A DNA stretch of 64,000 nucleotides from assembly GCA_031549385.1 (NCBI GenBank), contig JAVBPW010000001.1:1-64000 (forward strand), read 5' to 3'. Shown here piece after piece: positions 9,793 through 32,359 of this stretch. The notes under the pieces were generated by a model. It was not told the DNA's origin and made no database searches. It worked only from the letters and a program-made list of their open reading frames with translations. Origin of the DNA: Alphaproteobacteria bacterium (GTDB lineage Bacteria > Pseudomonadota > Alphaproteobacteria > Rs-D84 > SZUA-605). A program made the translations under genes and the position numbers. How positions within the stretch are numbered: position 1 is the first letter of the stretch; each line of letters opens with the position of its first letter.

Positions 9793-9870
9793 AATAGTAC
9801 TACTTTATAGGAATGTTTTCAATCTTTTGGAGAAATATTTTTAAAAAAGGCTCTTTTTCAGAGCCTTAGA

Positions 9871-11259
9871 TTATGCACCTTTTTTGAGTTCCGTGAGGAA
9901 TTCTTCAATTGTTGGTACTTTCCCGTTAGCAAATAATGGATCGTTTGCAAATCTGTATGCACTGTGACCTGAAAACATTAAATTGTTTTCTATATCACCA
10001 CCATGAGCTACTGCTACTAGTGTCTTTTGAATACAGAAGCTTCTTGGATCTGGTTCTATCTTTATATCGTCCCTTTCACACCAGCCTGAAAATTTACAGC
10101 CAGCTAAACATCCTACACAGGATTTTTGCTCTGCTACTATTTTCAATGCTTGGCCTGGAGTTTCAAACACTAATGTAGAATCTGGTGTTGGAAGCGGTAC
10201 GTTAAACCCAGCGTTTGCATATTCTGTTATTTTGTTTAATGAATCTGTTGATACATATGTATTTTTACCCGACGGTAAAACATATAATTGATCATTTGTT
10301 TCATTTGCTTGGTCAGAAAAAGCAACTTGTCTTTCTTTACGAGCATTTAAATTTCTTACAAATTCATTGTCAATTGCTGATGAATACATTCCAGTTGGTG
10401 AGAATTTTTGTAGCTTAATGTCACCTTCTTTTAATGATAACATTTTTTCTCTCCAAGCTTGTGATACTGGAGATTCTTTTGTTAATAGTGGACGAGTTCC
10501 TAATTGGAATGCTACTTCGCCTACTTCTGGATTGTTCATATATTGGGTACATTCTGACAATGTCCAAATTCCACCTGCTATGATGATAGGAACTGCTGCG
10601 AGTCCTACTGAATTCATGAACTTTCTTAGTTCAACTATACGGTCGTATGCACTTTCTCTTTTTTTAGGATCTTCAGCACCTGAAATTCCATTATGACCAC
10701 CTGCTACCCATGGGTCTTCGTATATTACACCACCTAACCATTCTTGTGTCTTTTCAAATCCTCTTGACCAGAGGGCTCTGAATGCACGAGCTGATGATAC
10801 TATTGGTTGATAATGTACTTTGAATTTAGCTGCTATTTCGCCTAGTTGGTATGGCATTCCTGCCCCTACTGAAATTCCGTGGATTTTACCTTTTGCACGT
10901 TCCAATATTCCTTCTAGGATTTCACGAGAATTACTTACACCCCATAAGATGTTCATCAATATACGACCTTTACCTTGTGATTCTTTGTAAGCTATTTCTG
11001 CGTTTGCTACTCCACCTTCTATTGAAAGACGTACTAATTCTTTATGTCTTTCTTTAGGAGTATCACCTTTTATGATGGCTGGATTGGGATTTCCATTTTC
11101 ATCGTATGTGTCTGCCATAACTGCACTGAATGTTCCTGCACAATCTTGAGCAGCAAAACGGCCAGAAGTTAAACCTGTAGATAATGCTACACCTTTTCCA
11201 CCCTCGATTATTGGGTCGATAAGTTTACCGGCTATTTTAACTTTTTTTAAATTTAACAT
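9871..11259 (-). CDS. Nitronate monooxygenase/FabK-like FMN oxidoreductase
   Basis: PIIEGGKG, GAGMP, EDPWVAGGHNG, AGGIW, FQLGTR, CxxCxxxC. Confidence 0.85.
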   Translation of the reverse strand: MLNLKKVKIAGKLIDPIIEGGKGVALSTGLTSGRFAAQDCAGTFSAVMADTYDENGNPNPAIIKGDTPKERHKELVRLSIEGGVANAEIAYKESQGKGRILMNILWGVSNSREILEGILERAKGKIHGISVGAGMPYQLGEIAAKFKVHYQPIVSSARAFRALWSRGFEKTQEWLGGVIYEDPWVAGGHNGISGAEDPKKRESAYDRIVELRKFMNSVGLAAVPIIIAGGIWTLSECTQYMNNPEVGEVAFQLGTRPLLTKESPVSQAWREKMLSLKEGDIKLQKFSPTGMYSSAIDNEFVRNLNARKERQVAFSDQANETNDQLYVLPSGKNTYVSTDSLNKITEYANAGFNVPLPTPDSTLVFETPGQALKIVAEQKSCVGCLAGCKFSGWCERDDIKIEPDPRSFCIQKTLVAVAHGGDIENNLMFSGHSAYRFANDPLFANGKVPTIEEFLTELKKGA

Positions 11260-17726: not shown

Positions 17727-17934
17727 ATAGATTTTGTATTAATTTTACTAAATTTCTTTGACCTTCAAGAAAATACAATTCCTCTTTAGTTGCTGATGAT
17801 GGAAGAGTTTTATTTAAAGTTATCTGATTTAAATATTCTAACACATTCTTTCCATTTATATTATTGAAAGTTAAAAAGAAACTTCTTTGTAATTGCTCTC
17901 TTTCTTGTTTTTCTCTGACGTTAAACATTTGCAC
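17719..17934 (-). CDS. Small podophage protein typically downstream of the portal (Bbp19-like)
   Basis: F...G..VLEYL...FLEGQRNLV motif; overlaps portal stop and addA stop. Confidence 0.7.
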   Translation of the reverse strand: MQMFNVREKQEREQLQRSFFLTFNNINGKNVLEYLNQITLNKTLPSSATKEELYFLEGQRNLVKLIQNLSK

Positions 17935-19498
17935 CTTCCATTTGCTTTTGTGTTTTTTGTATCATCCATTCTTTATAATTTTCTAGATTTTCAGCTAAGA
18001 CTTTATCATCTAAATTTATCAAGCCATCTATTAAATTTGCTGGCATTTTATGAACAAACTCTAAAACCTTGTTTTCATATTCTTCATCTTTTGTTAGTAA
18101 AAAACTTTTAGAAATATTCATCTTTTTAGTTATTGATTGAAGGATTTCTTCTTTGTCTATCATCTTTTCAAATGTTTGACCTAAGGCTGATACCATTTTT
18201 ATCCAATCCAAAATATTCGATACATCATCATAGGACTTTAACTGGCCTAGTTTTGATACATAATTTATCTGAATATCACTTTTAGAATATGGATCTTTAA
18301 TCTCACCCCTTCTTTTCAATATTGAATATGCTCTTAAAATTAATGGATTTAATAACTCACTTTGTAATCTTCCATATGTTGCTCCAAGTACCTTCAACGA
18401 GATACTTGAACGTTGCAATACTTCTGTTGCTGACATATTAAAGTTTTGATTAAATGGCTGTAATTGTGTTGATAATAATGCAGATTTTATATTCTCTCTT
18501 ATATCTTTTAAAATTAAGTCTGAAATATTAAAATCTGTTCCTACTTTCAACGGTGTTAGCCCACTTGACCCCATTGCTTTTGGTATTATTGCCCCTGGGG
18601 TTAGTTCTATATTTGCTGGATTTAGCACTCCATCATCGTCCGCTTGCCATACTCCGCTTACTGCTAAAGAAGCATTTTTTAATACTAATTCTACTATTTT
18701 ATTTGCTGTTTTTATGTCAGGTAGCGCTTTCATTATTGGAGATCTTCCATAAAAAACTGATGGAGATTTAGTAAAGCGGAAAATTATAAATGGATTTTGC
18801 TCGAATGTTCCTGATGCTAATACTTGATTGTCATTTTCTGTGAAAATAAAATATTTAAATTCATTGTTTTGCTTGTATACACATTCCACTATATTCAACT
18901 TAAAGTCTGAGTCATTCTTTTGCACATCTTCCATTTGCTTTGTCGGAATAAAATTTGAAAACTTTTCTTTTATTGCTGCTAATCCCATTTGACTTTTCTT
19001 ATATATGGTTTCTGGATGGGTTGAATTGTTTTCATCTATATAAATATCACGCATAGAAATTGCTTTGAAATTAAAGGCTGAATTTTGTCCTAATTGAGCT
19101 TCTTCAAATAATAAACATGCTGTTCCTATTACACATAAATCTATGTAGCATTGATGAATTGTTGAAAAGAAATTTGAGCGACCTAAATGAGCATATATCT
19201 TTTCTTGAGTTTCATGCAATGTGATTTCTGCTAATCTCTTTGATTTTCTATCTTTAGTTTCATAGTTTGAATGCAACTGAAACCATGATGAATAAGGTGG
19301 AGTCATTTCTGATAAAAGATGTGAAGCTAATTGGTCTACACAATCTGATGCAGTTGAATCAAATAAATTATCTTTTCTTGCACATGATGCAAATACATTT
19401 TGAGAGGGAAATGTATAATTATAACATTCTTCCCAAAGAGATTCTAAATCTCTTCTTTGCTCTTTTATTTTATAATATTTTTGTATTTTATTTTCCAT
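17921..19498 (-). CDS. T7 gp8-like portal (head-to-tail connector)
   Basis: FDSTA, YGRSPIMKALPDIK, MSATEV, GRLQSELLNPLI; 525 aa; AAGGAG RBS. Confidence 0.92.
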   Translation of the reverse strand: MENKIQKYYKIKEQRRDLESLWEECYNYTFPSQNVFASCARKDNLFDSTASDCVDQLASHLLSEMTPPYSSWFQLHSNYETKDRKSKRLAEITLHETQEKIYAHLGRSNFFSTIHQCYIDLCVIGTACLLFEEAQLGQNSAFNFKAISMRDIYIDENNSTHPETIYKKSQMGLAAIKEKFSNFIPTKQMEDVQKNDSDFKLNIVECVYKQNNEFKYFIFTENDNQVLASGTFEQNPFIIFRFTKSPSVFYGRSPIMKALPDIKTANKIVELVLKNASLAVSGVWQADDDGVLNPANIELTPGAIIPKAMGSSGLTPLKVGTDFNISDLILKDIRENIKSALLSTQLQPFNQNFNMSATEVLQRSSISLKVLGATYGRLQSELLNPLILRAYSILKRRGEIKDPYSKSDIQINYVSKLGQLKSYDDVSNILDWIKMVSALGQTFEKMIDKEEILQSITKKMNISKSFLLTKDEEYENKVLEFVHKMPANLIDGLINLDDKVLAENLENYKEWMIQKTQKQMEGANV

Positions 19499-19531
19499 AT
19501 TTTCTCCTTACTGTTTTATAGGAAATTAATT

Positions 19532-19553
19532 TAGCCCTGAATTAATCAGGGCT
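19532..19553. terminator. Hairpin between the ftsZ operon and portal
   Basis: TAGCCCTGA-N4-TCAGGGCTA inverted repeat. Confidence 0.5.
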
Positions 19554-19578
19554 ATTAAACGTTACAAATTCGTTAAAT

Positions 19579-20025
19579 TTATTGCTGTTGATACTTAATT
19601 AAATCTGAAATAGATTTATTTTCTTGTATATCACTTATCTTAATTCTCATTGGTTCACATTCATAACTTATCTTTGTATTTGTTATAAACTCAACTACTG
19701 GTGTTATTAATGTCATTGTTATTAAACATACTGTTATCATTACTAAAGCACCTGCAAAATTAATTTGCTTACCACTTGCTAGCATATCAAATACCATTTT
19801 TAATATAACAAAAAATATCATTATATATGCTAACATTTTTAAAAAATCGATTAACTCTTTTACGTATTTTTGAAAACAACTGTTTGAAGTTACTACTAAT
19901 GAATCTCCACTGATTACATTTTCATATCCAACAGATGTGAAATAATTTTGCATCTCTGATAATGATACTGCAAATAAGTTACTGCATGCAAATATTATTA
20001 GAAAAATTACAAATATTTTATTCAT
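19579..20025 (-). CDS. Secreted/membrane protein, possibly TrbC/VirB2 pilin-like
   Basis: Signal peptide plus two hydrophobic helices; overlaps the ftsZ stop. Confidence 0.5.
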   Translation of the reverse strand: MNKIFVIFLIIFACSNLFAVSLSEMQNYFTSVGYENVISGDSLVVTSNSCFQKYVKELIDFLKMLAYIMIFFVILKMVFDMLASGKQINFAGALVMITVCLITMTLITPVVEFITNTKISYECEPMRIKISDIQENKSISDLIKYQQQ

Positions 20026-21538
20026 CTTGTTCTTTTAAAAAGCTTTCAAAAGTATTTTCTTCTTCATTTAATGATGGCATGTCTTTGAATAAATCCATCA
20101 AATCATATGAAGCTGGTGTTTCTTTTTTAACTGGCTTTGGTTCTGGCCTTACTGGTCTTTCACCTTCTTCTTTAGCACCAAAGATATTTTTTAATTTACT
20201 TGAAAAAGATGCGTTTTTATCATCTGGCTTTGGTTCATTTGTTTGACCAATTGCCATTGATGAGATATCCAATGCTTGTGGGGTATCATCAAATTCTTCG
20301 ATGATTACTTCATCCATTGTCATTGGAAATACTTCTTCAATTTCTATTACTTCTTCTTGTTCTTCTTGCACTTCTTGTTCTTCTTCCAATGGAATAAATG
20401 TTTGTTCTTCATCTTCTTGAGTTGGTATCTCTTGAATTATTGTTGTTTCTGTGATTTCTATTATTCCATCTAATGGATCTAAGATTTCACCAGCTTCTTC
20501 TTGAACTGGTTTTGCTTCATCCAATATAGGTTTGATAAATTCATCAAAACTTTTATATTTGAAATCTGTATTTACTGAACCACTTAAACCTGTTGCTATT
20601 AATGTTAGGATTAATTTTCCATTTAAGCTTTTATCAAAGTTTGTTCCGAAAACAAAATTTTCTTGTGTCTTTAATTGATCCCTAACTTTTTCCATTATTC
20701 CTTTTACTTCACTTAATCTGATATCTGTACCACCAGAAATTTGAAGTAATACTTGTTTTGCTGAAACGGCACTTCCTTTGTCTATTAAATGATTTTCTAA
20801 TACTTGTGAAACAGCATCTTCTACTCTGTTATCACCTGTTGTGATTGCAGAATTTACCATTATTTGACCACCATTATCTAAGATAGATTTGATGTCAGCA
20901 AAGTCTAAATTAATTTGACCTGTTGTATTTATTATGTCTGTTATTCCTTGTATACCATTTGCTATTTGCATATCTGCTGAACCAAATGCTTCTGATACTG
21001 GAATGTTATTATCAAATGCTGTGAAGAAATTTTCATTTGGTATTATTACGTAACTTGATGTAGCTCCTGATAAATCATCCAGTGCGGAATTTGCTACTTT
21101 CTTTCTTTTTTCTCCTTCAAATGAGAATGGAAGAGTTACGATTGATACGTTTAATACACCTGCTTGTGTTGCTGCATTTGTTAATATTGGAAGAGCTCCT
21201 GAACCTGTTCCTCCACCTAAACCGCCTACAAAAAATATTAATGAAAAATCTTTAAAATAATCTTGAATTGCTGCAATATTTTCTATTGCACTTTGTTTTC
21301 CTATTTCTGGATTTCCACCTGTACCAAATCCTTTAGTCAATTTTACACCAAGAGGAATCTTTGTTTCTGATAGTGAACTTTGTAAACTTTGAGAATCTGT
21401 GTTTAAGGCTACATATGTAACGCCTGATATTTTCTGCTTTATTAGAGTGTTTAATATATTTATACCTGCACCACCTACACCTGCTATTAATATTTTTGGT
21501 GTAACATTATCTTCAAATTTAGCCCATGTATCTTGCAT
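20018..21538 (-). CDS. ftsZ: Divergent FtsZ
   Basis: GVGGAG, NTD, GGGTGSG, PFSFEG, INLDFAD; long acidic linker. Confidence 0.88.
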   Translation of the reverse strand: MQDTWAKFEDNVTPKILIAGVGGAGINILNTLIKQKISGVTYVALNTDSQSLQSSLSETKIPLGVKLTKGFGTGGNPEIGKQSAIENIAAIQDYFKDFSLIFFVGGLGGGTGSGALPILTNAATQAGVLNVSIVTLPFSFEGEKRKKVANSALDDLSGATSSYVIIPNENFFTAFDNNIPVSEAFGSADMQIANGIQGITDIINTTGQINLDFADIKSILDNGGQIMVNSAITTGDNRVEDAVSQVLENHLIDKGSAVSAKQVLLQISGGTDIRLSEVKGIMEKVRDQLKTQENFVFGTNFDKSLNGKLILTLIATGLSGSVNTDFKYKSFDEFIKPILDEAKPVQEEAGEILDPLDGIIEITETTIIQEIPTQEDEEQTFIPLEEEQEVQEEQEEVIEIEEVFPMTMDEVIIEEFDDTPQALDISSMAIGQTNEPKPDDKNASFSSKLKNIFGAKEEGERPVRPEPKPVKKETPASYDLMDLFKDMPSLNEEENTFESFLKEQDE

Positions 21539-21690
21539 ATTTCCCTCCGAACTTAGTGTCCGATACTTTTTGTTTTTAAAGTATTTTCTTTAAAAATCCA
21601 GTTTTTTCCTTATTCGGTACACATTATAACATATTGTTTGTTTTTTTTATAGACTTTTTTATTTTTTTATATTACTATGCTTTAGTCATT

Positions 21691-21766
21691 GGCCAGGTAG
21701 CTCAGTTGGTAGAGCAAAGGACTGAAAATCCTTGTGTCGACGGTTCGATTCCGCCCCTGGCCACCA
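21691..21766 (+). tRNA. tRNA-Phe(GAA)
   Basis: 76-nt cloverleaf, anticodon loop CTGAAAA, GGTTCGA T-arm, encoded CCA; TAGACT-N17-TACTAT upstream. Confidence 0.97.
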
Positions 21767-22037
21767 CTTATTTTATTTTCAATAAAATCATTGTTGGAGG
21801 AGACGTTTCCTCACCTTCGGTTCGATGTCCTCGGCAAAATTGCCTGCGGGCTTCGCGTACGCATTTTAAATGCTACTTGTCGGGCCGCCCCTGGCCACTA
21901 CTTATTTTATTTTCAATAAAATCATTGTTGGAGGAGACATTTCCTCACCTGCGGTTCGATGTCCTCGCAACTTTCGTTGCTTGCGGGCTTCGCGTACGCA
22001 TTTTAAATGCTACTTGTCGGGCCGCCCCTGGCCACCA
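21767..22037 (+). repeat. Two tandem ~135-bp tRNA-linked repeats, each ending in the tRNA-Phe 3' 16-mer
   Basis: Units 21767..21900 and 21901..22037; CCGCCCCTGGCCAC(C/T)A at 21751, 21885 and 22022. Confidence 0.92.
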
Positions 22038-22130
22038 CAAACTTGAAGTTTGACATTTTATTTTAAAAAACTAAATAATTTTCCTAAATATCTAATTTTA
22101 GAATTGCTATTATTAGTTTATTTGGAAATT

Positions 22131-23306
22131 TTAATCTTCTATGAATGGGTAGGATTTTACTGCTTCGGCTATCTTTTTTACTAATAATCTTTGATAGTCG
22201 TTTGTCTTTAATCGTTTCTCTTCTTCTCTGTTTGACATGTATCCTAATTCAACTAATACTGATGGAATGTGAGACTTTAATACTGCAAATGGAGCGTATC
22301 TTTGATTAGTGTCTAATAATGATACACTTCTGTCCTTCTTACATTTTTCGATTACTAACTTTGAAAAGATTATTGATTCCTCTTTTGTTTGTCGTAGTTT
22401 TAAATCACTTAACATACTTACTACTTTTTTATCATAATTTTTTGATAGTGATAAATCCATTAAGTCGGCTGCGTTTTCTCGTTCGGCTAGTCTTTGAGAT
22501 TCTATGTCAGATGCTTTGTCTGATAATGTATATATAGATAACCCCTTTGTATTTTCTTTTGGATGAGAGTCAGCATGAATTGATATAAATAAATCTGCCT
22601 TTTTCTTTCTTGCAAATTCACTTCTTTCAGCAAGCTGTAAGAAAGTATCGTTGCGACGAGTTAGATATACTTCATATCCCATGTTTTCTAATTCTCTTTC
22701 CAATAACTTTGCTGCTGATAAAGTTATTGTTTTTTCATAAGTTCCACCTTTTCCTATTGCTCCTGGATCTTTTCCACCATGACCTGCATCAACTACTATT
22801 ATCTTCTTTGTATGCTTTTTCATTTTTTGATCTTGAGTTATTATTGGAACGTTTGTAGTTTTTGGAATAACTTTTTCTTCGTCATCATCTTTATCTTTTG
22901 AACCTGATTTGCCTTTTTGAACAGTATCAAAAACTATACGATAGTTTTTATTTGAACCTTGTGGATTTAATATAAAATGTTTTTCTATTTTTGCATCACC
23001 GTCTACATCAAGGACTACTCTGTTTATATTTGGTAATTTTCCATAACGAACATCTTTTACATAGTCTAACTTTGAACCTGAGCCATTTAACTTATAAGCT
23101 TTAGCTTGTTCTATATTTATTACTATGCGGTTATCCATATATAAAAATGTATATTCTGGCTTGAAAGGAGTTTCTAATACAAATCTTACTCCACCCTCTG
23201 GACGTTTGCCTAATCTGTAGTCCATAGTCTCTGGTGCTCCAAATCCTTGCGAAAAGATTCCACATAAGAATAAAAAGAAAAATAATAAACCTTTTATTTT
23301 ATTCAA
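22131..23306 (-). CDS. amiC: N-acetylmuramoyl-L-alanine amidase (AMIN + Amidase_3)
   Basis: DAGHGGKDPGA, FISIHADS, VLVELGYMSN; signal peptide. Confidence 0.9.
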   Translation of the reverse strand: MNKIKGLLFFFLFLCGIFSQGFGAPETMDYRLGKRPEGGVRFVLETPFKPEYTFLYMDNRIVINIEQAKAYKLNGSGSKLDYVKDVRYGKLPNINRVVLDVDGDAKIEKHFILNPQGSNKNYRIVFDTVQKGKSGSKDKDDDEEKVIPKTTNVPIITQDQKMKKHTKKIIVVDAGHGGKDPGAIGKGGTYEKTITLSAAKLLERELENMGYEVYLTRRNDTFLQLAERSEFARKKKADLFISIHADSHPKENTKGLSIYTLSDKASDIESQRLAERENAADLMDLSLSKNYDKKVVSMLSDLKLRQTKEESIIFSKLVIEKCKKDRSVSLLDTNQRYAPFAVLKSHIPSVLVELGYMSNREEEKRLKTNDYQRLLVKKIAEAVKSYPFIED

Positions 23307-23769
23307 ATTCTATATTCAGTATATTTACTGCCCCTTCTTGACATTGTAAGTCTTCACTTGTTTCTGCATCTCTTCTTACTGCACTTCCGTTTAACCAAAC
23401 TTCTTTTGCAGATTTCCATTCTGAAAGTCCATAGAATATACAATCAGCTTGGGATAATTCTTCATAGGAAATTATAAAACCTTGACCACCTTCTGATGGA
23501 CGAACTATAAATTCTTTTCCATATGCATTTCTGTTGTTTCTTAATGCTCCATATCTTTGTAAGTAAGATATAGTCAATAAACCGTAATCTGATTTTCCTT
23601 GGAATAATGTCTTTATGTTTTCTGATAAATCTTCAACTTCATTTATTGTAGACATTCTTGTTAATTTTTCACGTGATCTTGTGTACATTGAAACAGCACC
23701 GATTGTTAATATTCCTACAATTGCGATAACGGCCAAAGTTTCCAACATTGTTCTTCCTGATTGTCTCAT
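23299..23769 (-). CDS. Type IV pilin-like protein
   Basis: Class III signal QSG|RTMLE followed by a hydrophobic helix; C-terminal Cys pair. Confidence 0.8.
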   Translation of the reverse strand: MRQSGRTMLETLAVIAIVGILTIGAVSMYTRSREKLTRMSTINEVEDLSENIKTLFQGKSDYGLLTISYLQRYGALRNNRNAYGKEFIVRPSEGGQGFIISYEELSQADCIFYGLSEWKSAKEVWLNGSAVRRDAETSEDLQCQEGAVNILNIEFE

Positions 23770-23834
23770 TTTGTGCTCCTTGGTAAAATATCTTTGATTT
23801 TGTTAAAAGATTATAGCATAAAAATTATTTTATT

Positions 23835-24692
23835 TCAAATATTGAAATTAGTTTTTGCTTGATAAAATGCTTTTTTTTCATTTGAATTTATAATTACTTT
23901 TCTTGATAAACTTCCAAAGTTTGATTCTAAGCCTGTTGCTATTGCATCTATACAATCATCTTTATTATTTTGACGCTCTATTTTGAAAGATTCTAATTCT
24001 TCAACTAACACTGAAGTAGTCAGATTTGCTTTTATATAAAAATATGATGAATATAAAAGTGGTTGAATGTTTCTTATTATTCTCTCATTCTTGTTTTGTG
24101 TTTGGACTACCTTCTTTATAAATATAGGATAATTCATAGTTTTTGCTGTTTGAATTATCATCTCTGATAAGAATGCACCTATTCCATTTGTTTCAATTAC
24201 TAAGTTGAATAAATTGTTCTTTTTCATAAAAATTATTACCTCTTCACACTGATACTGCGCAGATGAATTTTCATCTTCTTTATTTAAACATTTCAAATCA
24301 TTTATATAACAATTACTTTGATCATCTTTGAATATTGCTACTACTATACTTTTATCACTTGTTGCTTTACCTAATGATGGATCCCATGATACACATCCGA
24401 AAGTTAAATTTCGACCATCCAAAAAATATTTTTGTATTCCATTACTTTGAAATAACTCCACATCTTTGTTGTATACATTTATTAGTGAAGTATCAAAAAA
24501 AATATTGTCCGTTTCTGGGACAATAAGCAACATTTGTGAATTAAATTTTAATGGACCTGAACGATGTGCTATTTCTTTACATTTTTTAGGTGAAAATCGT
24601 TCTGGCCAAACTGAATTTCCTTTTTCATCAAAAAGCGGTATTTTTAATATTTCAAACCCTTCTAAGAAAGGTGGAGATTTTGAAACTAACAT
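23835..24692 (-). CDS. Terminase large subunit, C-terminal RNase H-like nuclease half
   Basis: WPERF, WDPS..SD, ETNGIG, KNERI, DDCIDA; own AAGGA RBS. Confidence 0.85.
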   Translation of the reverse strand: MLVSKSPPFLEGFEILKIPLFDEKGNSVWPERFSPKKCKEIAHRSGPLKFNSQMLLIVPETDNIFFDTSLINVYNKDVELFQSNGIQKYFLDGRNLTFGCVSWDPSLGKATSDKSIVVAIFKDDQSNCYINDLKCLNKEDENSSAQYQCEEVIIFMKKNNLFNLVIETNGIGAFLSEMIIQTAKTMNYPIFIKKVVQTQNKNERIIRNIQPLLYSSYFYIKANLTTSVLVEELESFKIERQNNKDDCIDAIATGLESNFGSLSRKVIINSNEKKAFYQAKTNFNI

Positions 24693-24777
24693 TTATTTCC
24701 TTATTTTTGCGAATCCAAAATGCTTTATCAACCTTTTAAAAGGCAACTTATCTTTGTTTGAAATTTCAATGATTTAT

Positions 24778-24872
24778 AAAAAAAAGAACCCGGGGCAACT
24801 TTTTTATAGGAGAGGAGGAAGGAGAAAAAGAGAATGCCTCGGGATTTTTTATATAGACTCGGAGCCTATACG
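24778..24872 (-). ncRNA. Candidate small RNA with CU-rich anti-SD loop, between the terminase halves
   Basis: TTGACA-N17-TAAAGT at 24907..24879; hairpin 24852..24870; stem 24787..24846 enclosing UUUUUCUCCUUCCUCCUCUCCU; U-tract. Confidence 0.65.
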
Positions 24873-24928
24873 GTTCACACTTTAAACACCTGATTCTAAA
24901 TTGTCAAGCATAAAGTTTTCTTTAGTAT

Positions 24929-25561
24929 TTATTTATTTGCATATATTGTGTCATAAGTGTGTGGAGTACCTATATAAAGCTGTAAACCATTGGGATTCAA
25001 TATAAAATCTAGTTCTGATAGAAATTGGCGAAGATTTTCTCTTTTTTCCGAATTATCGCTGTTTTTTGGCACTTCGCAGTCATCACATATTATTATATCA
25101 GCCCTGTAACCCGTTATATTTCCCATTACTGATGCTGAAATTACAGATGGATCTCTTAATTCTTTAGTTCTTTCAACTGTAAAACAGTCTGAAGCCCATT
25201 GCTCTTTCTTTAATGGGACTAAATTTTGGGTTAAAGGATGCTTTTGTATAATATGTTTTATATTTCGTACCATTTTTGTTGCCAAATTTTGTTCACATGA
25301 CAAGATTAATATGACTAAATTTGGATTTTTATATAAAATCCATGCACAAAATAAACCAACTATTGATGACTTGCCTGAATTTCGAAAAGCCATCAATAAT
25401 CCCTTTTTAGTTTGTGATGTGTGTATTTTTTCCAACCAAAATGCTATTTGTTTATGATGATTTGGGGTTTTGAATTCGTTTTGTTTGTTAAATATATCTA
25501 TAAATTCATAAAAATTTACTTTGATTGCTTGATTAGATATTTCCGTAATCTTCGCTTTCAT
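24929..25561 (-). CDS. Terminase large subunit, N-terminal ATPase half
   Basis: Walker A AFRNSGKS, G-x-RAD, Walker B IIICDDCE, motif III IGTP. Confidence 0.88.
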   Translation of the reverse strand: MKAKITEISNQAIKVNFYEFIDIFNKQNEFKTPNHHKQIAFWLEKIHTSQTKKGLLMAFRNSGKSSIVGLFCAWILYKNPNLVILILSCEQNLATKMVRNIKHIIQKHPLTQNLVPLKKEQWASDCFTVERTKELRDPSVISASVMGNITGYRADIIICDDCEVPKNSDNSEKRENLRQFLSELDFILNPNGLQLYIGTPHTYDTIYANK

Positions 25562-26195
25562 TGTAAGCTTCCATGATAGTTCCTAAATCTTGAGAAAGTT
25601 CAGGAAATTTTGCTTTTAATAAATCAATCATATTTACTACCAAACCATAACAACTTCCATCGTTTGAATTATTTAACAACTTTTTCATATCTTCAAATAT
25701 TATTTTTATATCTTCATATGTTTTTTCAGCTGATAAACTTTCATCAAGGAAATCAATTTCTGAATTTACTAATCGTTTTGCTGTTTCATCCCAGACTATT
25801 GCTTTTTTTGCTTCTGCTTGAGGAAGAGTTGTTTTTATTTCACCTTTTTCTGGATCATATTTAATACATTTCTTTAGCTCCTCATTTGTCTGTCTTATTA
25901 ATTCAACTATGTAATCCATATCTAGATTTAAATCTTGAGCAGATATTACCCCATATTCTTGTAAATCTGTTTGGCGAACTATTTTTAAATTCCTTTTTAT
26001 AACTATTTTACTATTTAATGCTGGTGGAATGGAAAATATTATTTGCCCATAATCATCACTGAGCTCTGTATGGTAACCACCCTCTTGCTTTAATCCATTT
26101 ATATAAATTTCTAAATTTTCTGGTTTAAAAACTTTAAAGTTAAATGAAAATTCTGTTGTTGTACCATTTGCTTTATATGTTACTTGATTATCCAT
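25533..26195 (-). CDS. T7 gp17-like tail fibre N-terminal (adaptor) domain protein
   Basis: YKANGTTTEFSFNF...I.IKR...LNLDMDY...Q pattern; only 220 aa. Confidence 0.75.
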   Translation of the reverse strand: MDNQVTYKANGTTTEFSFNFKVFKPENLEIYINGLKQEGGYHTELSDDYGQIIFSIPPALNSKIVIKRNLKIVRQTDLQEYGVISAQDLNLDMDYIVELIRQTNEELKKCIKYDPEKGEIKTTLPQAEAKKAIVWDETAKRLVNSEIDFLDESLSAEKTYEDIKIIFEDMKKLLNNSNDGSCYGLVVNMIDLLKAKFPELSQDLGTIMEAYNESEDYGNI

Positions 26196-26685
26196 TTGTA
26201 CCTCCGCTGATTATTGTAGTTGTGCTTTTTGTTGTCTTTGGCATTGCTGAACTTACTGTTGTTACTGTACTGCCTACTCCAGAAATTAGATTTCTTCTTT
26301 TTGACATTAAATTCTTTGATAATGTGTTATCTAAATCTCTTGTCAAATTTTTTGAACTTGCTTCATAGTCTTGTTGATTACTATATTGTCTTTTAGCAGA
26401 TTCTTCTTTTATATTACTTAACACTGCTGATGAAGATTCTGAATCTATTTCAATTTGATTAGCTCCAAATCTTGCACTTTGTTCTGCTAATGTTCTTTTT
26501 AATAATGAATTTTCTGTTTCTTGTTGCTCCTTATAATTTCTGTCCAAAGCTTCTTTTTTAATCTCATAATCTTCCATTATTGTTTTCTTTTGTTTTTTAT
26601 TTTCATCTGCATTTAAGGCTTGATCTATACCTTTAAATATTAAATCAAATCCTGTTGCTGCTACCGTTGCTGCTGCTGTTGCCAT
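26188..26685 (-). CDS. Putative internal virion protein (gp14-like)
   Basis: Ala/Thr-rich N-terminus, coiled coil, EQSARFGANQI..S.SS; follows the tail nozzle gene. Confidence 0.55.
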   Translation of the reverse strand: MATAAATVAATGFDLIFKGIDQALNADENKKQKKTIMEDYEIKKEALDRNYKEQQETENSLLKRTLAEQSARFGANQIEIDSESSSAVLSNIKEESAKRQYSNQQDYEASSKNLTRDLDNTLSKNLMSKRRNLISGVGSTVTTVSSAMPKTTKSTTTIISGGTNG

Positions 26686-26697
26686 TTAAAACCTCCT

Positions 26698-28587
26698 TTA
26701 AGATAGTGCTTTAATTTTTAGTGAAATACTTTGCATACAAAATTTAAATGGTGCATCACTTTGTATTTTCCAAAGTGGAGTGTTTCCATTTGTTTTATAT
26801 CCAAATGATGACATTACATAATTACCTGTGAATTCTGTTAAACCTTTTCCATAACTACGTTGCTCCAGTTGTAATTTGTTTAATCCAAATCCTGTGTCTA
26901 TTTCTAATATTGCTGATTCTTCTAATCTTATTGATAATTCTATTAGTCTGTACTTTTTGTAACCACCGCCTGATAACTTAGTAAATGGAAATGGAACAAT
27001 CGTATGTTTATATGGATAGCCTATACAATAACTTGAAACAGGTTCGTTTAAAATCATTGTACTTTCTTCTATTTTCTTTTTTGAATATATAAAATCATCA
27101 ACTTTAATATAAATTTCTTCTCCTAAATATTCACTTAATTCATAAATACCTGTTATACTTTGTTCTTTTGAATGTTCGTATTTTGCACAATCTAAATATA
27201 AATCGTCTTCAAATTTTTCCAGATAAAAGTTTTCATTTCTTTTAGTTATTACATAGGTATTATTATCTAATGTTGTTGAATATAAAAACTTCCCATATGT
27301 TTGATAGTTACTCCAAGATAAAACTTGATTCTGAGGAGATACTGTTAATACTGCCATTTCTCCATTTGATAAAACTACATACAATTGTCTTTTAGACTTA
27401 TTATAAGTCATATCAGTTGGATCTTTTATTAAATGTGAACAAAGTTGCGATAGATTGTTTGATGTATAATTTGCTACCACTTGTCCATATACAAATTCTC
27501 TGATTTCTTTTTTGTCTTTTGATACAAAAATTGTTGCTGATTCTATTTGTAACACTGGTAAAAATCTCTCTGTTGGACTTCCTATTGCTGTTTGCTTCGA
27601 TAAAGATACTGTTGATGGTGTTATCAAATTTGTTGGAACTATCCATTCACCACTGTATGTTAAAATTTGTAAATGAAGGGCTGAAAATATTGTCTGAATT
27701 TCTTCCATACCTGAAGATAGGAGACAGAATTCTATTGCTTCATCATCTAACCCTTGTCCGCAATCAAAGTTTCCATATGTAAAAGTTTTTGAAAACCATA
27801 ACTTATTTGGCTGAGTTGGAGTTGCTCCAAAAACTAAACGACCTTGATGAAAACATGAAGTTTTTGGATACCCTCTTGTATCAGAAAAAGCAGCCTCTTT
27901 GTATGAACCTTGAGCAATATTTTTAAATTGCTTTAAGACCTGAATGTTTGCTTTTACTAAAGAAATTATACTTATAATTTTAAAAGAACCTTCGTTAAAT
28001 ATAAATTCTTTATTAATCATGTCTGATGTAAAAAAATCTACATTAGATGTTATTGTTGTTGCCCCTGTTATTCCAGCCGGTGTAAATAAAACACTCTTTT
28101 TATCATCAAATTTATAATAAGGGTAAAGACTTGTTCCGTATGTGTCTTGAGCGAACACAAAATTCTTAAACACAAAACCATAAGTTTTTTCATAGGTCAA
28201 AACTTTTGGATGGTGGTTTTGATGAGTGAAAATCATTTCTGATAAATTCTGAGATGTTTGTATTTGATCGATTTCACTTTCTTTATATGGAGTTTCTAAA
28301 ATATCAAATAACGCATCGTCTTTGTATAAATACATTAGACCTGGAAGTAATACTATTAGATAATTATCATTACTTTTTAATGTAAAACTGAATAATTTTC
28401 CCTTTTGTGGAAGTTTATGGACTAGTTTTAATCCGCCTCTTCTTTTTATTGCTCCACTCTCTGTTGTGTGAGCATTTTGTAAAACTGATACCCCGTTTGA
28501 ATGTGCTGCTAAATCAGCACGAGATGTGTAACTTTGAGCAAGTTCTCCATTTAAGAAAGAGTTTTGTGTGTGTGTAAATATTGTCAT
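26698..28587 (-). CDS. Tail tube B/nozzle (T7 gp12-like)
   Basis: QNSFLNGEL, GAIKRRGG, GYP..CFHQGRLVFG, LWFSKT; about 630 aa. Confidence 0.85.
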   Translation of the reverse strand: MTIFTHTQNSFLNGELAQSYTSRADLAAHSNGVSVLQNAHTTESGAIKRRGGLKLVHKLPQKGKLFSFTLKSNDNYLIVLLPGLMYLYKDDALFDILETPYKESEIDQIQTSQNLSEMIFTHQNHHPKVLTYEKTYGFVFKNFVFAQDTYGTSLYPYYKFDDKKSVLFTPAGITGATTITSNVDFFTSDMINKEFIFNEGSFKIISIISLVKANIQVLKQFKNIAQGSYKEAAFSDTRGYPKTSCFHQGRLVFGATPTQPNKLWFSKTFTYGNFDCGQGLDDEAIEFCLLSSGMEEIQTIFSALHLQILTYSGEWIVPTNLITPSTVSLSKQTAIGSPTERFLPVLQIESATIFVSKDKKEIREFVYGQVVANYTSNNLSQLCSHLIKDPTDMTYNKSKRQLYVVLSNGEMAVLTVSPQNQVLSWSNYQTYGKFLYSTTLDNNTYVITKRNENFYLEKFEDDLYLDCAKYEHSKEQSITGIYELSEYLGEEIYIKVDDFIYSKKKIEESTMILNEPVSSYCIGYPYKHTIVPFPFTKLSGGGYKKYRLIELSIRLEESAILEIDTGFGLNKLQLEQRSYGKGLTEFTGNYVMSSFGYKTNGNTPLWKIQSDAPFKFCMQSISLKIKALS

Positions 28588-28597
28588 TGCCAACTCC

Positions 28598-28999
28598 TTA
28601 ATATAAAAATAGTGTTTGTGGTAAGTTTGTGTAATTGCTTCGAAGATCGAGATGTATAAATGTTTTTGCTATACCAACTGAAAAGCCTAAATTAAGTGCA
28701 CACCTTATTAGCTTTGCATTTAAAATCCCGTTTTGTTTTGCTATATCAATTGCACAAGTTGCTAAATTTTGCTTTTCATCAAAAATGTGAAAACTGTTTT
28801 TTACTCCACCTATTTCTTGATTATAAGATAAACTTCTGCAACATGAATTAACAATCATAGGATGTCCATAAAGCAATCTTAATTCTTTTAATTTTTCTGC
28901 AAAACTACAAGCTAGTATTCCGTCTTTTGATTTTTTACATTGAAGTTCCTTTATGGAAAAGAGAACTTTTCCATTGTCGTCTTTTATATCTTGTAACAT
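28598..28999 (-). CDS. Peptidase M15-type endolysin
   Basis: NSCCRS..N..IGG..NSFH, AIDI, FIHLDLR (His/Asp/His Zn ligands). Confidence 0.85.
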   Translation of the reverse strand: MLQDIKDDNGKVLFSIKELQCKKSKDGILACSFAEKLKELRLLYGHPMIVNSCCRSLSYNQEIGGVKNSFHIFDEKQNLATCAIDIAKQNGILNAKLIRCALNLGFSVGIAKTFIHLDLRSNYTNLPQTLFLY

Positions 29000-29000
29000 A

Positions 29001-29570
29001 TTAACCTCGGCAGTCTATTAATGAGAATTTAGTTATTTTTTCTGGGGTCTTTTGTTGAGCGTCTATTAGTTTTGCTAATCTTTCTTGGCTTATACAAACT
29101 TGGTTTAAGTAACTTGATTTTGCATGGTCTTCTGTTAATGGAAGACAAAATTCATAAGATAAAAAATCCACTAATAAATTTATGAAAAATGGAGGCATTT
29201 GACTTTCGTCAATATCCTGAATCACTTTTATTGTTACTATGTCTGAGTTTGCATAAAGTCGGTCTTTCATTATTTTATATGAAATGTCTGAAAAATTATC
29301 CCCTGCCCCACATGAAATTATCCTTAAAATATTTTTAGGTAATAAATAGGTATATGAATAACCTTGAATTGCAGGTTCATCTAATGATGCTGGTTGAATT
29401 AAATTGCAAGCAAATGTCCATGGGTATGATGAAAGCAATTTTTGTTTTACTATTTTATAAAAAGATTTTGAAATTTTAGCTTCTGCTGTGTTTTGATTAA
29501 AATTTGATATTGTATTTGCACCTATTTTAAGCAATGCCATAGAGCAAATATCTATGTTTGTGTAATTCAT
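29001..29570 (-). CDS. Tail tube A/adaptor (T7 gp11-like)
   Basis: DICSMALLKIG, YPWTFA, Y.LP..LR; position after the capsid gene. Confidence 0.8.
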   Translation of the reverse strand: MNYTNIDICSMALLKIGANTISNFNQNTAEAKISKSFYKIVKQKLLSSYPWTFACNLIQPASLDEPAIQGYSYTYLLPKNILRIISCGAGDNFSDISYKIMKDRLYANSDIVTIKVIQDIDESQMPPFFINLLVDFLSYEFCLPLTEDHAKSSYLNQVCISQERLAKLIDAQQKTPEKITKFSLIDCRG

Positions 29571-29593
29571 TAGAAATACTCCTTTTAAAGTTT

Positions 29594-29617
29594 AAAGGGG
29601 GCAAAAAGCCCCCTTTT
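29594..29617 (-). terminator. Intrinsic terminator after the capsid/decoration genes
   Basis: AAAGGGGGC-N5-GCCCCCTTTT. Confidence 0.75.
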
Positions 29618-29618
29618 A

Positions 29619-29849
29619 TTACATTGCTACTAATGTTACTGCTGTGTCAGTTACTGCTGAAACTGCTGCAATTACACTTTGATCACTTGCATTGATGAAA
29701 ATAAAATCATTAGCATTAATTACTTTTGACATGTCTGCAAAATATGTAGATGCCATTGTTACTGCTTTTGTATCTGTTGTTTTATAGTGCCACAATGTGA
29801 AGCCATTTGCATAGGCTAGTACGCTTAAATTGTTTGTTTTAAAAGCCAT
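29619..29849 (-). CDS. Putative head decoration/cement protein
   Basis: 76 aa, LSVLAYANGFTLWHY...YF; directly after capsid; AAGGAG RBS. Confidence 0.65.
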   Translation of the reverse strand: MAFKTNNLSVLAYANGFTLWHYKTTDTKAVTMASTYFADMSKVINANDFIFINASDQSVIAAVSAVTDTAVTLVAM

Positions 29850-29860
29850 AGTATTCTCCT

Positions 29861-30694
29861 TTATGCTACTATTGCTGCGTCATCTTTGCAGCTGATTTTT
29901 ACTATTCCACTTTCGTCAATTACACATGAACCTTGGCTCATTGAGTTTGATATGAAATGTGATTGGCGATCGCCTTGCCATGAAATGTCAGATTTTACTT
30001 CTGAACCTACAGCATGACCTATTGCTGTTTTATGATAAATAAAGCATTGGCGATTTCCTGAAATTAATGGAAGATTGTTGTGTAAAATCCAAATTACTCC
30101 CATCCATTTTCTTGCTTCACTTCCATTTATTAATGCATAGTTTTCACCACAATATTCTGATGAAGTGAATTCTTTAATGCTTAATAGTTCTGACCATTGA
30201 TGAACACCTACTACACCAAATCTTTGACCGTCGTCTGGACATGAAAGTTCATTCAATTTTTCAATTGCTTTCATAATCTTTTCTTTTGTTAGACCTTTTG
30301 TGTCCGCTGCTACTTCATTTGTTGCTTTTGAAAGTGCACTAATGATTAATTCATCTGTTTTTCTTCCTAATGCATATGCTCCAGCTGAAGCTATTACTTT
30401 TCTTTCGTCTGTGTTTGTTTTTAATTCATCCATAGCATCGCACCAATCGCCTGCATAAAAATCTTGCAAAACACATTCTATTGGTGTGTGTTGAATGTTC
30501 ATTGTTGGAACTAACCCATGACGAGATTTTGTTGATGCTGTGCCTTTGCCTACTCTTTGGAATGTAGTTGAAGAACCTTTTACATCATTTTTTACTCGCA
30601 CAGTGTTGCGTAGTTTTGTTCCGTATTGTTGATATTGCAAATGTACATCTGCTTCAAATTGTTTGATAAATGCTTGATCTATTGTTAAAGACAT
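29861..30694 (-). CDS. Major capsid protein (podovirus-type)
   Basis: FIKQFEADVH..YQQ.G.KLRNTV, AGAYALGRKTDELII; strong RBS; follows the scaffold gene. Confidence 0.85.
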   Translation of the reverse strand: MSLTIDQAFIKQFEADVHLQYQQYGTKLRNTVRVKNDVKGSSTTFQRVGKGTASTKSRHGLVPTMNIQHTPIECVLQDFYAGDWCDAMDELKTNTDERKVIASAGAYALGRKTDELIISALSKATNEVAADTKGLTKEKIMKAIEKLNELSCPDDGQRFGVVGVHQWSELLSIKEFTSSEYCGENYALINGSEARKWMGVIWILHNNLPLISGNRQCFIYHKTAIGHAVGSEVKSDISWQGDRQSHFISNSMSQGSCVIDESGIVKISCKDDAAIVA

Positions 30695-30783
30695 TCTTAT
30701 TCTCCTTTAATTAATTATTTAATTGTCGACTTTATACCGGAGGGTGAGTCTTTATTTATTGTTATCCTTGCGGGCAATAGTTT

Positions 30784-31413
30784 TTATTTGTATAGTTTTT
30801 CAAATCCTTCTTTTACCTTTTGGCAAAATTCCGGATCATTTTCTTTCCAATATTTTGGATTATTCATTAGCTTCTTTAGTGAATCTAATGTTAATTGTTT
30901 TGATGGGGATGATGTTTCGTCTAAGATTTTAGGCTCTGATGAATTCAACATCTTATATAGTAATAATACTCCGTCATATGATGAAGCAAGAACTTCATAT
31001 AAATCTTGAGATAGATTATTGTCTGCATATGTTTGAATTTGAGATGCTACTTTTTCCCAATTTTCTTGTCCACCAAAATAATTTTTTAAATTTTGTAATT
31101 GTGTTTGTTGTTTTAAATCAAATTCTGTTTCTTGTATCTTTGTATTTAAATTCTGATTCAAAATATCATGAACACATTTTGCTTGTGATTTTGTAAATTT
31201 ATTTTCAAATAGTTTCTTACCTATAGCTTCATCTTGAAAATCTAGTTCATATTCACTTGGGTCTTGAGGTAAATCTAAATTTATTTCTTCTTGATTTGAT
31301 GTGCTTAGCTTTTTTTCTAAATCTTTATATGATTTCAATAAATTTTTTGCGTTTAGTTGACCTGTTTCTTTATCCAAAAATTTTTCTGGTATCTTTATTT
31401 CTTGATCTGTCAT
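30784..31413 (-). CDS. Capsid scaffolding protein (T7 gp9-like)
   Basis: IPEKF..L.KSY.DLEKKL, FGG..W, M.NPKYW...DPEF..KV. Confidence 0.8.
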   Translation of the reverse strand: MTDQEIKIPEKFLDKETGQLNAKNLLKSYKDLEKKLSTSNQEEINLDLPQDPSEYELDFQDEAIGKKLFENKFTKSQAKCVHDILNQNLNTKIQETEFDLKQQTQLQNLKNYFGGQENWEKVASQIQTYADNNLSQDLYEVLASSYDGVLLLYKMLNSSEPKILDETSSPSKQLTLDSLKKLMNNPKYWKENDPEFCQKVKEGFEKLYK

Positions 31414-31421
31414 AATTGCTC

Positions 31422-31607
31422 CTATTTTAAATTTTCATCAATAGATTTTCTTAAGAAAACTATCGAAAATAATGGGAAGATTGTGGAAAATAAATTAGCT
31501 AAATCTAAATCTCCTAATAAATATCCTGAGACTGCTGAAATAATTCCTGTGATTGATACAAGGTATGTTTTTTTACCTTTTAACATTCCACCGTTTAATA
31601 AATTCAT
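31422..31607 (-). CDS. Holin-like small membrane protein
   Basis: GKKTY, two hydrophobic segments, basic tail; next to a cell wall hydrolase. Confidence 0.6.
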   Translation of the reverse strand: MNLLNGGMLKGKKTYLVSITGIISAVSGYLLGDLDLANLFSTIFPLFSIVFLRKSIDENLK

Positions 31608-31617
31608 TTTAATTCCT

Positions 31618-32079
31618 TTATATTTTGTAAAATAAATATTGTTTTATTTGAGTTTGGTAACCTTTTCCTTCTGCGAGTTCTGGAAATTCGTCTTCGTGAT
31701 GGTAAAAAGTAGATCCAAAGGTTGTATCCTTTAAAATTCCTCGTAGCACTTTACCGGCTAGCCTTGAACATATTGCAAATTCAGGATTGGTTATTGTGGT
31801 ACCTGGAAGTTTATTTTTTAATTTTTGATAAAAGTTTTCATCTAAACAAATTGAGTCTATGGTTTTATTAGCATGATTTGAATTTTTAATTCTGTTTGCT
31901 ATTGTGCATGCTATTGCTTCTTTTAAAATTAATGAAAGACCATAAGATTCATGATATATGGTAAAGGCTAGTATAAATTGTTGGTGTTCTTTCTTTTGAC
32001 AATCTTGAAGTAATATATCTTTATATTCTTTGGTTGCATTTGATTTTGTGAAATCACAAAATTTTAAACTATTTAACAT
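31618..32079 (-). CDS. SleB/Hydrolase_2-family cell wall hydrolase
   Basis: LAFTIYHES (catalytic Glu), IANR, D.T.GSTFYH, YLFY. Confidence 0.75.
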   Translation of the reverse strand: MLNSLKFCDFTKSNATKEYKDILLQDCQKKEHQQFILAFTIYHESYGLSLILKEAIACTIANRIKNSNHANKTIDSICLDENFYQKLKNKLPGTTITNPEFAICSRLAGKVLRGILKDTTFGSTFYHHEDEFPELAEGKGYQTQIKQYLFYKI

Positions 32080-32359
32080 TATACTTCCTTTTTTCTAATT
32101 TTTCTTCTATACGCAATAAATGATTTGTTAGACGAGTTTCAAGATCTCTAATGTAAGAAACCGAACAATAGGACATTGCTACTTCAAGCTTGTATGAAGA
32201 TAAATCTTCGGCAAGCTTTATAACATTTGCCTTTGCTTCGTCTTTTAATTGATTTAAATCGTTTTGAGTTTGCCTTGAATGGGATCTTAGTAAAAAAAAT
32301 AAGCCTGTTAGTGCAGGCAATTCTATTACTTGTATCCACCAAAAATAGCTAAATTCCAT
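32069..32359 (-). CDS. First gene of the virion cluster, membrane-anchored coiled-coil protein
   Basis: N-terminal hydrophobic WWIQVIELPALTGLFF, YKLEVA..Y.S, HLLRIEEKL. Confidence 0.7.
   Translation of the reverse strand: MEFSYFWWIQVIELPALTGLFFLLRSHSRQTQNDLNQLKDEAKANVIKLAEDLSSYKLEVAMSYCSVSYIRDLETRLTNHLLRIEEKLEKRKYNVK

Follow-up and report, generated by a model that had tools for sequence, protein, structure and literature searches.

We analysed a stretch of 64,000 nucleotides, hereafter the window, which makes up positions 1 to 64,000 (forward strand) of contig JAVBPW010000001.1 in assembly GCA_031549385.1. The source genome is a metagenome-assembled genome of a small-genome gut alphaproteobacterium. 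On the minus strand of the window, a T7-type large terminase (TerL) is encoded by two intact open reading frames (ORFs), 24929-25561 and 23835-24692, with 236 bp between them. A preliminary description of this DNA had reported the TerL as two clean ORFs 236 bp apart, the second of which has its own AAGGA, and our ORF and sequence check bore this out. The parts of the split gene, with protein lengths in amino acids (aa), are as follows.

24929..25561, minus strand: TerL N-half, 210 aa; the ATPase core with Walker A (including the P-loop arginine), Walker B and the catalytic glutamate, and motif III
24693..24928, no strand assigned: spacer between the TerL halves, 236 bp, non-coding in the TerL frames
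24698..24702, minus strand: C-half ribosome binding site AAGGA, 5 nt before the ATG, read from the sequence
23835..24692, minus strand: TerL C-half, 285 aa; ~95 conserved N-terminal residues, then an RNase H-like nuclease

The C-terminal end of the N-half is ...GTPHTYDTIYANK-stop, and the start codon of the C-half is ATG. Stop codons are found in all three frames across the spacer (24693-24928).

Profile searches place the two products on consecutive parts of one protein family. In Pfam, the N-half matches Terminase_6N (PF03237, E 2e-6), and residues 116-215 of the C-half match Terminase-T7_RNaseH-like (PF22530, E 1.7e-8). Along the TerL profile PHROG 38, the N-half covers positions 266-459 (E 1.5e-46) and the C-half positions 473-714 (E 4.9e-26). 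The NCBIfam model NF033889 termin_lrg_T7 has 500 positions and a cut-off of 150; the N-half reaches 239.4 bits over positions 1-190, which is above the cut-off, and the C-half 86.4 bits over 231-498, which alone is below it. The unsplit orthologue L076 scores 426.8 bits over 1-500. Residues 45-208 of the N-half align to residues 46-211 of PDB 8DGC_E (E 1.5e-25). For the C-half, a profile search of the PDB gave a weak match only (8DGC, E 0.0084), and a single-sequence search of the PDB gave no match. The Walker A, Walker B and nuclease motifs, described earlier as intact, are indeed intact and also invariant in relatives: F59, R60, G63, K64, S65, D160, D161, E163, G198, T199, P200 and H201 across 26 N-halves, and W103, D104, P105, D113, E167, D245, D246 and D249 across 21 C-halves. 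The alignment of the 21 C-halves contains nine further invariant residues within the first 95. These positions come from the alignments; the names Walker A, Walker B and motif III are those in general use for terminase ATPases. Nothing is missing at the junction, and the two pieces together are a T7-type large terminase.

The break is located 9 residues past motif III (T199 P200 H201), in agreement with the preliminary description, which had the N-half ending just after this motif. That description also placed the break at about the usual linker between the ATPase and the nuclease, and this proved incorrect, as the break lies ~100 residues upstream of the nuclease domain. The same distance is seen in the unsplit L076, in which the break point corresponds to about residue 195 and the nuclease domain to residues 295-443. 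In published structures, as presented in passages of two reports (PMC5727402, PMC7617512), the terminase ATPase domain is composed of an ASCE core and a lid subdomain, the short linker to the nuclease follows the lid, and the lid contacts the P-loop arginine in solved terminases. For the phage D6E terminase, a passage of PMC5727402 gives N169 as the residue of the motif III region, 213-224 as the lid, and 230-241 as the linker. By position, that is, by profile coordinates read against these published structures, the C-half probably carries the ATPase lid and the linker in addition to the nuclease, and the N-half the nucleotide-binding core only. With the lid in the C-half, the ATPase of the N-half should need the C-half. 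This layout suggests an obligate two-subunit enzyme rather than separately regulated cutting. With the break away from the ATPase-nuclease linker and the lid presumably in the C-half, separate regulation of cutting and translocation, as proposed earlier, is not indicated; the ~95 conserved C-half residues ahead of the nuclease give this proposal no support either.

The split is not private to this assembly. We surveyed 61 genomes of the same order, all of them strongly reduced (0.5-1.1 Mb); the counts given here come from related genomes and are not mutually independent. The N-half is present in 53 of the 61 genomes and the C-half also in 53, with both in 51, the N-half only in two (G006, G042), the C-half only in two (G024, G026), and neither in six. 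The halves thus co-occur in 51 of the 55 genomes having either, and the C-half is kept in 51 of the 53 having the N-half. Both halves could be extracted from 50 genomes belonging to five families; G046 was left out, its C-half being fragmented on small contigs. In all 50, the ATPase and the nuclease are on separate polypeptides, and the frame of the N-half reaches a stop 0-11 residues past the common GTPHxxxTIY end. The N-halves end 2-12 residues past TIY, and the C-halves begin 6-20 residues before PFLxGF, so that every C-half starts shortly ahead of the conserved PFLxGF..LKIPI..WPE motif. Three genomes without both halves (G010, G011, and G057) also lack the capsid and portal genes, which indicates that the halves travel with the structural gene module described below.

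The DNA between the halves differs among families. In families f1, f2, and f4 the halves are ~170-550 bp apart. In family f5 they are 3.3-4 kb apart, and the intervening DNA carries dnaB, a double helix-turn-helix (HTH) regulator gene, and a third ORF, all on the opposite strand; the f5 halves therefore cannot form one transcript. In family f3, the halves are separated by ftsZ and the portal gene. The distance grows to 15.6 kb in G035, the order is inverted in G040 (C-half before N-half), and the halves are on different contigs in three genomes. Because the break is identical in relatives whose spacers and gene orders differ, a misassembly or a private lesion, either of which would have undone the preliminary description, is excluded.

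Within family f5, for example at locus L049 (G055, 9151-9152), the C-half and dnaB point away from each other, with a two-base overlap of their start codons, so the promoter of each must lie inside the coding sequence of the other. The 30 nt upstream are conserved across f5.

To compare the two halves, ratios of nonsynonymous to synonymous substitution rates (dN/dS) were calculated by the Nei-Gojobori method (NG86) for 49 genomes (1176 pairs), with the N-half of G007 dropped for its in-frame stop. The medians are taken from 25 pairs with dS <1.5 in both halves (the other 1151 had dS >=1.5 or undefined in one half) and are 0.13 for the N-half and 0.20 for the C-half; for the closest pair, the values are 0.012 and 0.046, respectively. 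Within the C-half, dN/dS is 0.17 for the first ~95 residues and 0.20 for the rest, which is the nuclease part. Internal stops are absent from 49 of 50 N-halves and from 50 of 50 C-halves. Both halves are under purifying selection. At equal divergence of the N-half, the ratio of C-half dN to N-half dN is 1.4-2.0 in the split clade and 1.4-1.8 in the unsplit clade, and this agreement means that the split has not relaxed the C-half. For the unsplit clade, we used 1200 random pairs from 70 sequences and took only this ratio from them; the dN/dS values of that clade (0.39 and 0.46) come from GC-rich, deeply diverged pairs and are not comparable with those of the split clade. The earlier suggestion that the split is a selected state is thus upheld, as the split is order-wide and both halves evolve under purifying selection; neither half shows the relaxed selection that would have spoken against it.

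The N-half of G007 (L054, ~9569-10156) has an in-frame TAG near its start, and its longest clean ORF, from an internal methionine, encodes 171 aa. This TAG may be a recent lesion, or the protein may have a different start.

A search of sequencing runs listed no RNA run containing this stretch. Two metatranscriptome runs of the same study (X2 and X3) were compared with positions 17900-32100 at 90% likeness. The summed bin depths of RNA-library contigs (metagenome contigs, 90% likeness) were low over parts of both halves: 6.3 and 1.1 for the C-half and 1.7 for the N-half in X2, and 1.0 for the N-half in X3. The depth was zero in the bin 24536-25009, which holds the spacer. At 90% likeness in a metagenome, none of these depths shows either transcription or silence.

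Outside the order, the gene is unsplit. A search with the N-half profile against one genome per prokaryote species returned at least 587 confirmed relatives, and the record titles among the matches listed include Azospirillum, Thalassospira, Micavibrio, Magnetovibrio, and many uncultured Alphaproteobacteria. In 73 of the 80 best loci, one continuous ORF (median 499 aa) encodes both parts; 4 loci show the same split as the window, and in 3 the contig ends past the break. In an even class-wide sample, the gene is present in 62 of 401 genomes, mostly as one copy. The open frame measures 202-217 aa in the four genomes that belong to the order of the window. It is long in the other 58, apart from one frame interrupted by a stretch of N letters and one that stops where its contig ends. 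The unsplit orthologues are 51-61% identical to the N-half. In 71 unsplit proteins, the stretch from TIY to (F/Y)LxGF is 6-13 residues long and variable in both sequence and length, and the N-tail (3 residues) and C-leader (7 residues) of the window exactly fill this variable loop. Among phage terminases, the closest ones are encoded by one ORF each (558-586 aa), and a profile of the unsplit orthologues aligns to the phage phi15 TerL with an hhalign probability of 99.95% over 438 columns.

Three metagenome proteins (P0046, P0108, and P0125; 200-214 aa, 34-44% identical to the N-half) end 8-15 residues past the motif equivalent to TIY. Each may be a fragment or the result of an independent fission at this loop.

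The spacer of the window contains two further elements.

24879..24907, minus strand: sigma-70-like promoter (TTGACA, 17 nt, TAAAGT), 10/12 matches, 22 bp past the N-half stop
24776..24872, minus strand: candidate small RNA of ~100 nt, with a 5' hairpin, a terminator hairpin with a CU-rich loop, and a U-run

The terminator hairpin has a stem of 9-13 bp and a ~30-nt unpaired CU-rich loop with CCUCC cores, which are anti-Shine-Dalgarno-like. The candidate small RNA folds with -21.1 kcal/mol (z -2.81), and 1 of 200 shuffles folds equally well. An equivalent TTGACA-17-TATAAT-like site is located just past the N-half stop in the spacers of G001, G002, G004, and G007. The cassette of promoter, hairpin, and CU-rich loop is found in the spacer of all five genomes with adjacent halves, and a near-identical cassette occurs 0.5-1.6 kb past the N-half end in eight further genomes, of family f3. 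In single-sequence folds, all 16 candidate stretches have the same architecture, with stems that differ in sequence and keep their pairing; RNAalifold on a MAFFT alignment of the whole candidates gave a poor consensus (-0.62 kcal/mol) with the stems misaligned. A simple terminator scan missed the hairpin in the spacer, as its loop is longer than 8 nt.

We built a covariance model, R1, from these same sequences with a structure given by hand; it is dominated by near-identical g4 sequences. R1 matches positions 24778-24845 of the window (E 2.6e-7), which is its own match by construction, and it is found in 1-3 copies in 21 of the 61 genomes (f1 1/1, f2 4/4, f3 13/19, f4 1/1, f6 1/3, f5 0/32). 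In a regular-expression scan of 84 loci, covering ~3 kb around the TerL match, the CU-loop hairpin was found in no unsplit locus and only in the split loci L072 and L100. The 236 bp of the spacer are not repeated in the genome; one 31-bp match (44949-44979) lies in unrelated sequence, and a repeat search of the spacer gave short AT-rich pairs only. From its position, the cassette suggests that its insertion into the DNA coding for the loop made the split.

A second copy of the small RNA is present in the window at 42526-42640 on the plus strand (R1 match 42549-42605, E 7.3e-5), right after the ORF 41859-42527, so that R1 finds two copies in the window's genome. Of the three hairpins of this second copy, the middle one bears the CU-rich loop.

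The spacer element looks like an anti-Shine-Dalgarno small RNA gene, a candidate by its sequence and predicted fold. The closest kind that we can name is presumably the cuckoo / alpha-r14 type, with its CCUCCUCCC loops. The spacer element shares with cuckoo / alpha-r RNAs the alphaproteobacterial host, CU-rich loops with CCUCC, and a promoter and terminator of its own, whereas it has a single long loop inside the terminator hairpin and matches no Rfam family. The Rfam search of the window spacer (E up to 10) gave chance-level rows only and no intron family, and that of the g4 copy and the second window copy gave no match, the cuckoo/alpha-r families included.

We consider it probable that the two genes result from an ancient, selected fission of a T7-type large terminase and that their products reassemble as one enzyme. 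In the common ancestor of the order, a single gene of ~500 aa would have been cut in the DNA for the variable 6-13-residue loop past motif III. The cut was most likely made by insertion of a small cassette (promoter, small RNA hairpin, and terminator) that is still in place. The N-product would then be the nucleotide-binding core, and the C-product would comprise the putative lid and linker together with the nuclease. Each product would have a start of its own, and in some families also a separate transcription unit. The halves most likely reassemble non-covalently, and the predicted heterodimer would serve as one terminase protomer that packages DNA into a T7-like capsid. We also put forward, as a tentative possibility, that the whole is an undescribed, vertically inherited T7-like element of the gene transfer agent (GTA) type, that its obligate two-gene terminase was cut between core and lid by the insertion of an anti-Shine-Dalgarno small RNA gene, and that the chemo-mechanical coupling of P-loop and lid works across a non-covalent interface.

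Several observations weigh against an obligate pair or a cassette tied to the terminase. The main one concerning the obligate pair is genome G006 (family f6, 99% complete, 70 contigs), which keeps the capsid, the portal, and an intact N-half (locus L057, 9240-11301, with the portal gene ~30 bp after the N-half), and in which a profile search found no C-half anywhere. In G006, the N-half may persist without the C-half, the lineage may be losing the enzyme, or the C-half may lie in an assembly gap. Another f6 genome, G010 (L184), has a 30-residue remnant of the C-half with two stops. The C-half is found alone in G024 and G026, and the N-half alone in G042 (70% complete); assembly gaps are possible in all three. 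For the cassette, R1 also matches in G010, G011, G015, and G028, in which no TerL half was found, so the small RNA is not tied to TerL. For the origin, a quick IQ-TREE analysis of 122 N-half sequences left the backbone open, with a very long phage outgroup branch; the branch that sets the unsplit group apart has a support of only 21, which is no proof of a single origin. A single origin is suggested by the identical break point and the taxonomic distribution of the sequences, not by the tree.

The halves might instead have divided the work between them, with the N-half as the translocating ATPase and the C-half as a free nuclease whose cut is separately regulated, for example in headful packaging of the chromosome. 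Such subfunctionalisation would fit the separate transcription units of f5, the N-half of G006 without a detectable C-half, and the two genomes with the C-half only. It would also fit the isolated Sf6 nuclease domain, which is more active than the full-length protein according to a passage of a review (PMC13595956), but a passage of the same review has the isolated SPP1 and P22 nucleases inactive. The ~95 strongly conserved C-half residues before the nuclease continue the homology to the ATPase domain, and the lid contact to the P-loop arginine, as stated in parts of PMC5727402 and PMC7617512, means that the ATPase should need the C-half. The halves are moreover found together in 51 of the 55 genomes with either. 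We consider this division of work unlikely.

We find it very improbable that the gene is dying, as part of a defective prophage remnant in which the split was the first pseudogene lesion. The strong reduction of these genomes (0.5-1.1 Mb) is in line with such decay, and decay is seen in places: six of the 61 genomes lack both halves, the three that were checked also lack capsid and portal, G010 has only the C-half remnant (30 residues, two stops), and the G007 N-half has the in-frame TAG. However, the ORFs are open and the catalytic residues invariant in 50 genomes of five families, dN/dS is 0.13 and 0.20, the C-half is not additionally relaxed in comparison with the unsplit orthologues, and the capsid is still 53-71% identical across the order.

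The two halves could also be rejoined into one polypeptide, by an intron in the spacer, by trans-splicing of a split intein, or by translational bypass. Some phage terminase genes are interrupted by group I introns that splicing removes, as described for Jug phages in a part of PMC12880540, and the spacer of the window folds better than its shuffles. The structured part of the spacer is, however, a terminator, made up of a hairpin and a U-run behind a promoter, and no intron or other Rfam family matches the spacer. The halves fit the unsplit orthologues end to end and leave no room for intein segments. In f5, dnaB and other genes on the opposite strand separate the halves, and the order of the halves is inverted in some genomes. 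Rejoining is thus extremely improbable. An assembly or sequencing artefact (a chimeric join or a frameshift) is next to impossible even for a genome that comes from a metagenome and whose sole DNA run holding this stretch may be its own source, since 49 other genomes have the same split at the same residue with different spacers and gene orders; the contig from the DNA run is identical over 22006-32100, which is not independent evidence.

The two terminase genes are part of a T7-like structural module encoded on the minus strand. The other genes of this region of the window, from high to low coordinates, are as follows.

31618-32079, minus strand: wall hydrolase
30784..31413, minus strand: scaffold-like protein, 209 aa (weak PHROG 1018 match; position conserved in relatives)
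29861..30694, minus strand: major capsid protein, 277 aa (PF19821, E 8.7e-73)
29001..29570, minus strand: T7-type tail tubular protein A-like, 189 aa (PHROG 394, E 8.7e-35)
28598-28999, minus strand: M15-family peptidase, between the tubular A and B genes
26698..28593, minus strand: T7-type tail tubular protein B-like, 631 aa (PHROG 376, E 1.7e-91)
Between the tubular B and fibre-like genes, minus strand: 165-aa protein
25533..26195, minus strand: tail-fibre N-terminal-domain-like protein, 220 aa (PHROG 1640 and other tail/tail-fibre families)
23299-23769, minus strand: prepilin-like protein, 156 aa, directly after the C-half
22131-23306, minus strand: AmiC-type amidase (Amidase_3) with an AMIN domain, after the pilin-like gene
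21691-21766: tRNA-Phe
20018-21538: ftsZ
17921..19498, minus strand: T7-type portal (head-tail connector), 525 aa (PF12236, E 4e-99)

The end of the fibre-like gene overlaps the start of the N-half by 29 bp, and this gene is conserved upstream of the N-half in relatives. The capsid proteins are 53-71% identical across the relatives' loci in the order. No counterpart of the M15 peptidase was found by tblastn (E 1e-4) in the 12 relatives' loci examined. The pair of prepilin-like and AmiC genes also follows the C-half in G001. The portal gene is set apart from the rest of the module by ftsZ, tRNA-Phe, amiC, and the pilin-like gene. The proteins that we recognised in the window are structural, lysis-type, and terminase proteins among host genes, and no replication genes or small terminase were recognised in the module; not every ORF of the window was annotated.

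A compact form of the module is found in G091, a free-living relative with a complete 4.6-Mb genome. Its set of ~12-13 kb is in T7 order: portal, scaffold, capsid, tubular A, tubular B, collar/fibre, unsplit TerL, wall hydrolase, and a protein matching GTA_holin_3TM. This cluster is flanked by pyrD and an HTH/S24 repressor-like gene. Across hosts, the guanine-plus-cytosine (GC) content of the loci ranges from 0.30 to 0.73 and tracks that of the host.

By its gene content and distribution, the module is a vertically inherited, podovirus-derived, T7-like structural gene set, conserved in 53 of the 61 genomes of the order and in 62 of the 401 sampled across the class. It looks domesticated because it is mostly single-copy and has host-like GC, because no replication genes were recognised among its annotated ORFs, and because essential genes are interspersed with it in the reduced genomes. 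In this it looks like an element of the GTA kind, known here from its genes alone. The preliminary description had thought of a cell that packages its own chromosome; the vertical, structural-only, and GTA-like character of the module agrees with this idea in a limited way, with packaging of host DNA as a putative function.

Large terminases are treated as single two-domain proteins, and current models of the packaging motor depend on movements that are passed through the lid and the linker within one chain. Here an enzyme that usually consists of a single protein has been kept as two genes through the evolution of an order, with the cut past motif III, which is unusual. A natural split terminase would be a ready system for finding which covalent connections the motor needs, and would also show how the ATPase and nuclease activities couple. 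The module itself is a widespread, domesticated-looking T7-like structural set in Alphaproteobacteria, present in about one in seven of the genomes sampled. Should particles be formed from it, Alphaproteobacteria would have a second, independent kind of gene transfer agent, retained even by genomes smaller than 1 Mb.

In the mostly open-access literature, in main texts, we found no description of a heritable two-gene terminase or of a conserved T7-like alphaproteobacterial module. The closest known proteins are the TerLs of the T7 family (T7 gp19 and PhiV-1 gp19; PDB 4BIJ, 8DGC), which are homologous over the whole length and have the same motif set. The N-termini of Autographiviridae TerLs are ~35% identical to the N-half of the window, and the compact form of the module shares with T7 the gene order portal, scaffold, capsid, tubular A/B, fibre, TerL. 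In the T7 family, however, TerL is one gene in a lytic phage genome, whereas here it is two genes that are chromosomal and vertically inherited. The window terminase also lacks ~45 residues that the phage proteins carry past the break region, and it ends ~60 residues earlier than the 586-aa phage protein. The unsplit alphaproteobacterial orthologues have the same neighbours (tubular A/B, fibre-like, wall hydrolase, and portal genes), and differ in that their frame stays open through the point at which the first ORF of the window stops and, after 236 bp, a second one starts.

The packaging ATPase of the phi29 type, gp16, has no covalently attached nuclease; phi29 has no terminase nuclease at all and uses a packaging RNA (pRNA). 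In contrast to gp16, the split terminase keeps its cognate nuclease half.

A terminase coding sequence in two or more DNA pieces is also described in parts of two phage reports. In Jug phages, the terL pieces are co-transcribed and rejoined by group I intron splicing (PMC12880540), and in phage phiPDS1 there are two terL coding sequences, for which the authors suspected an issue of genetic code or assembly (PMC10773633). Unlike in these phages, the spacer of the window has no detectable intron, the pieces can be separated by host genes on the opposite strand, and the split was maintained while the order diversified.

Gene transfer agents such as the RcGTA type share several features with the module of the window: a phage-derived structural set, no recognisable replication genes, vertical inheritance, and genes scattered among housekeeping genes. 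A 2026 paper, in the part of its text that we cite, presents a Faecalibacterium element as the first podovirus-like GTA-like element (PMC12946183). In contrast to the RcGTA type, which is of HK97-like siphovirus ancestry, the module of the window, characterised here through its genes only, is of T7-like (podovirus) ancestry.

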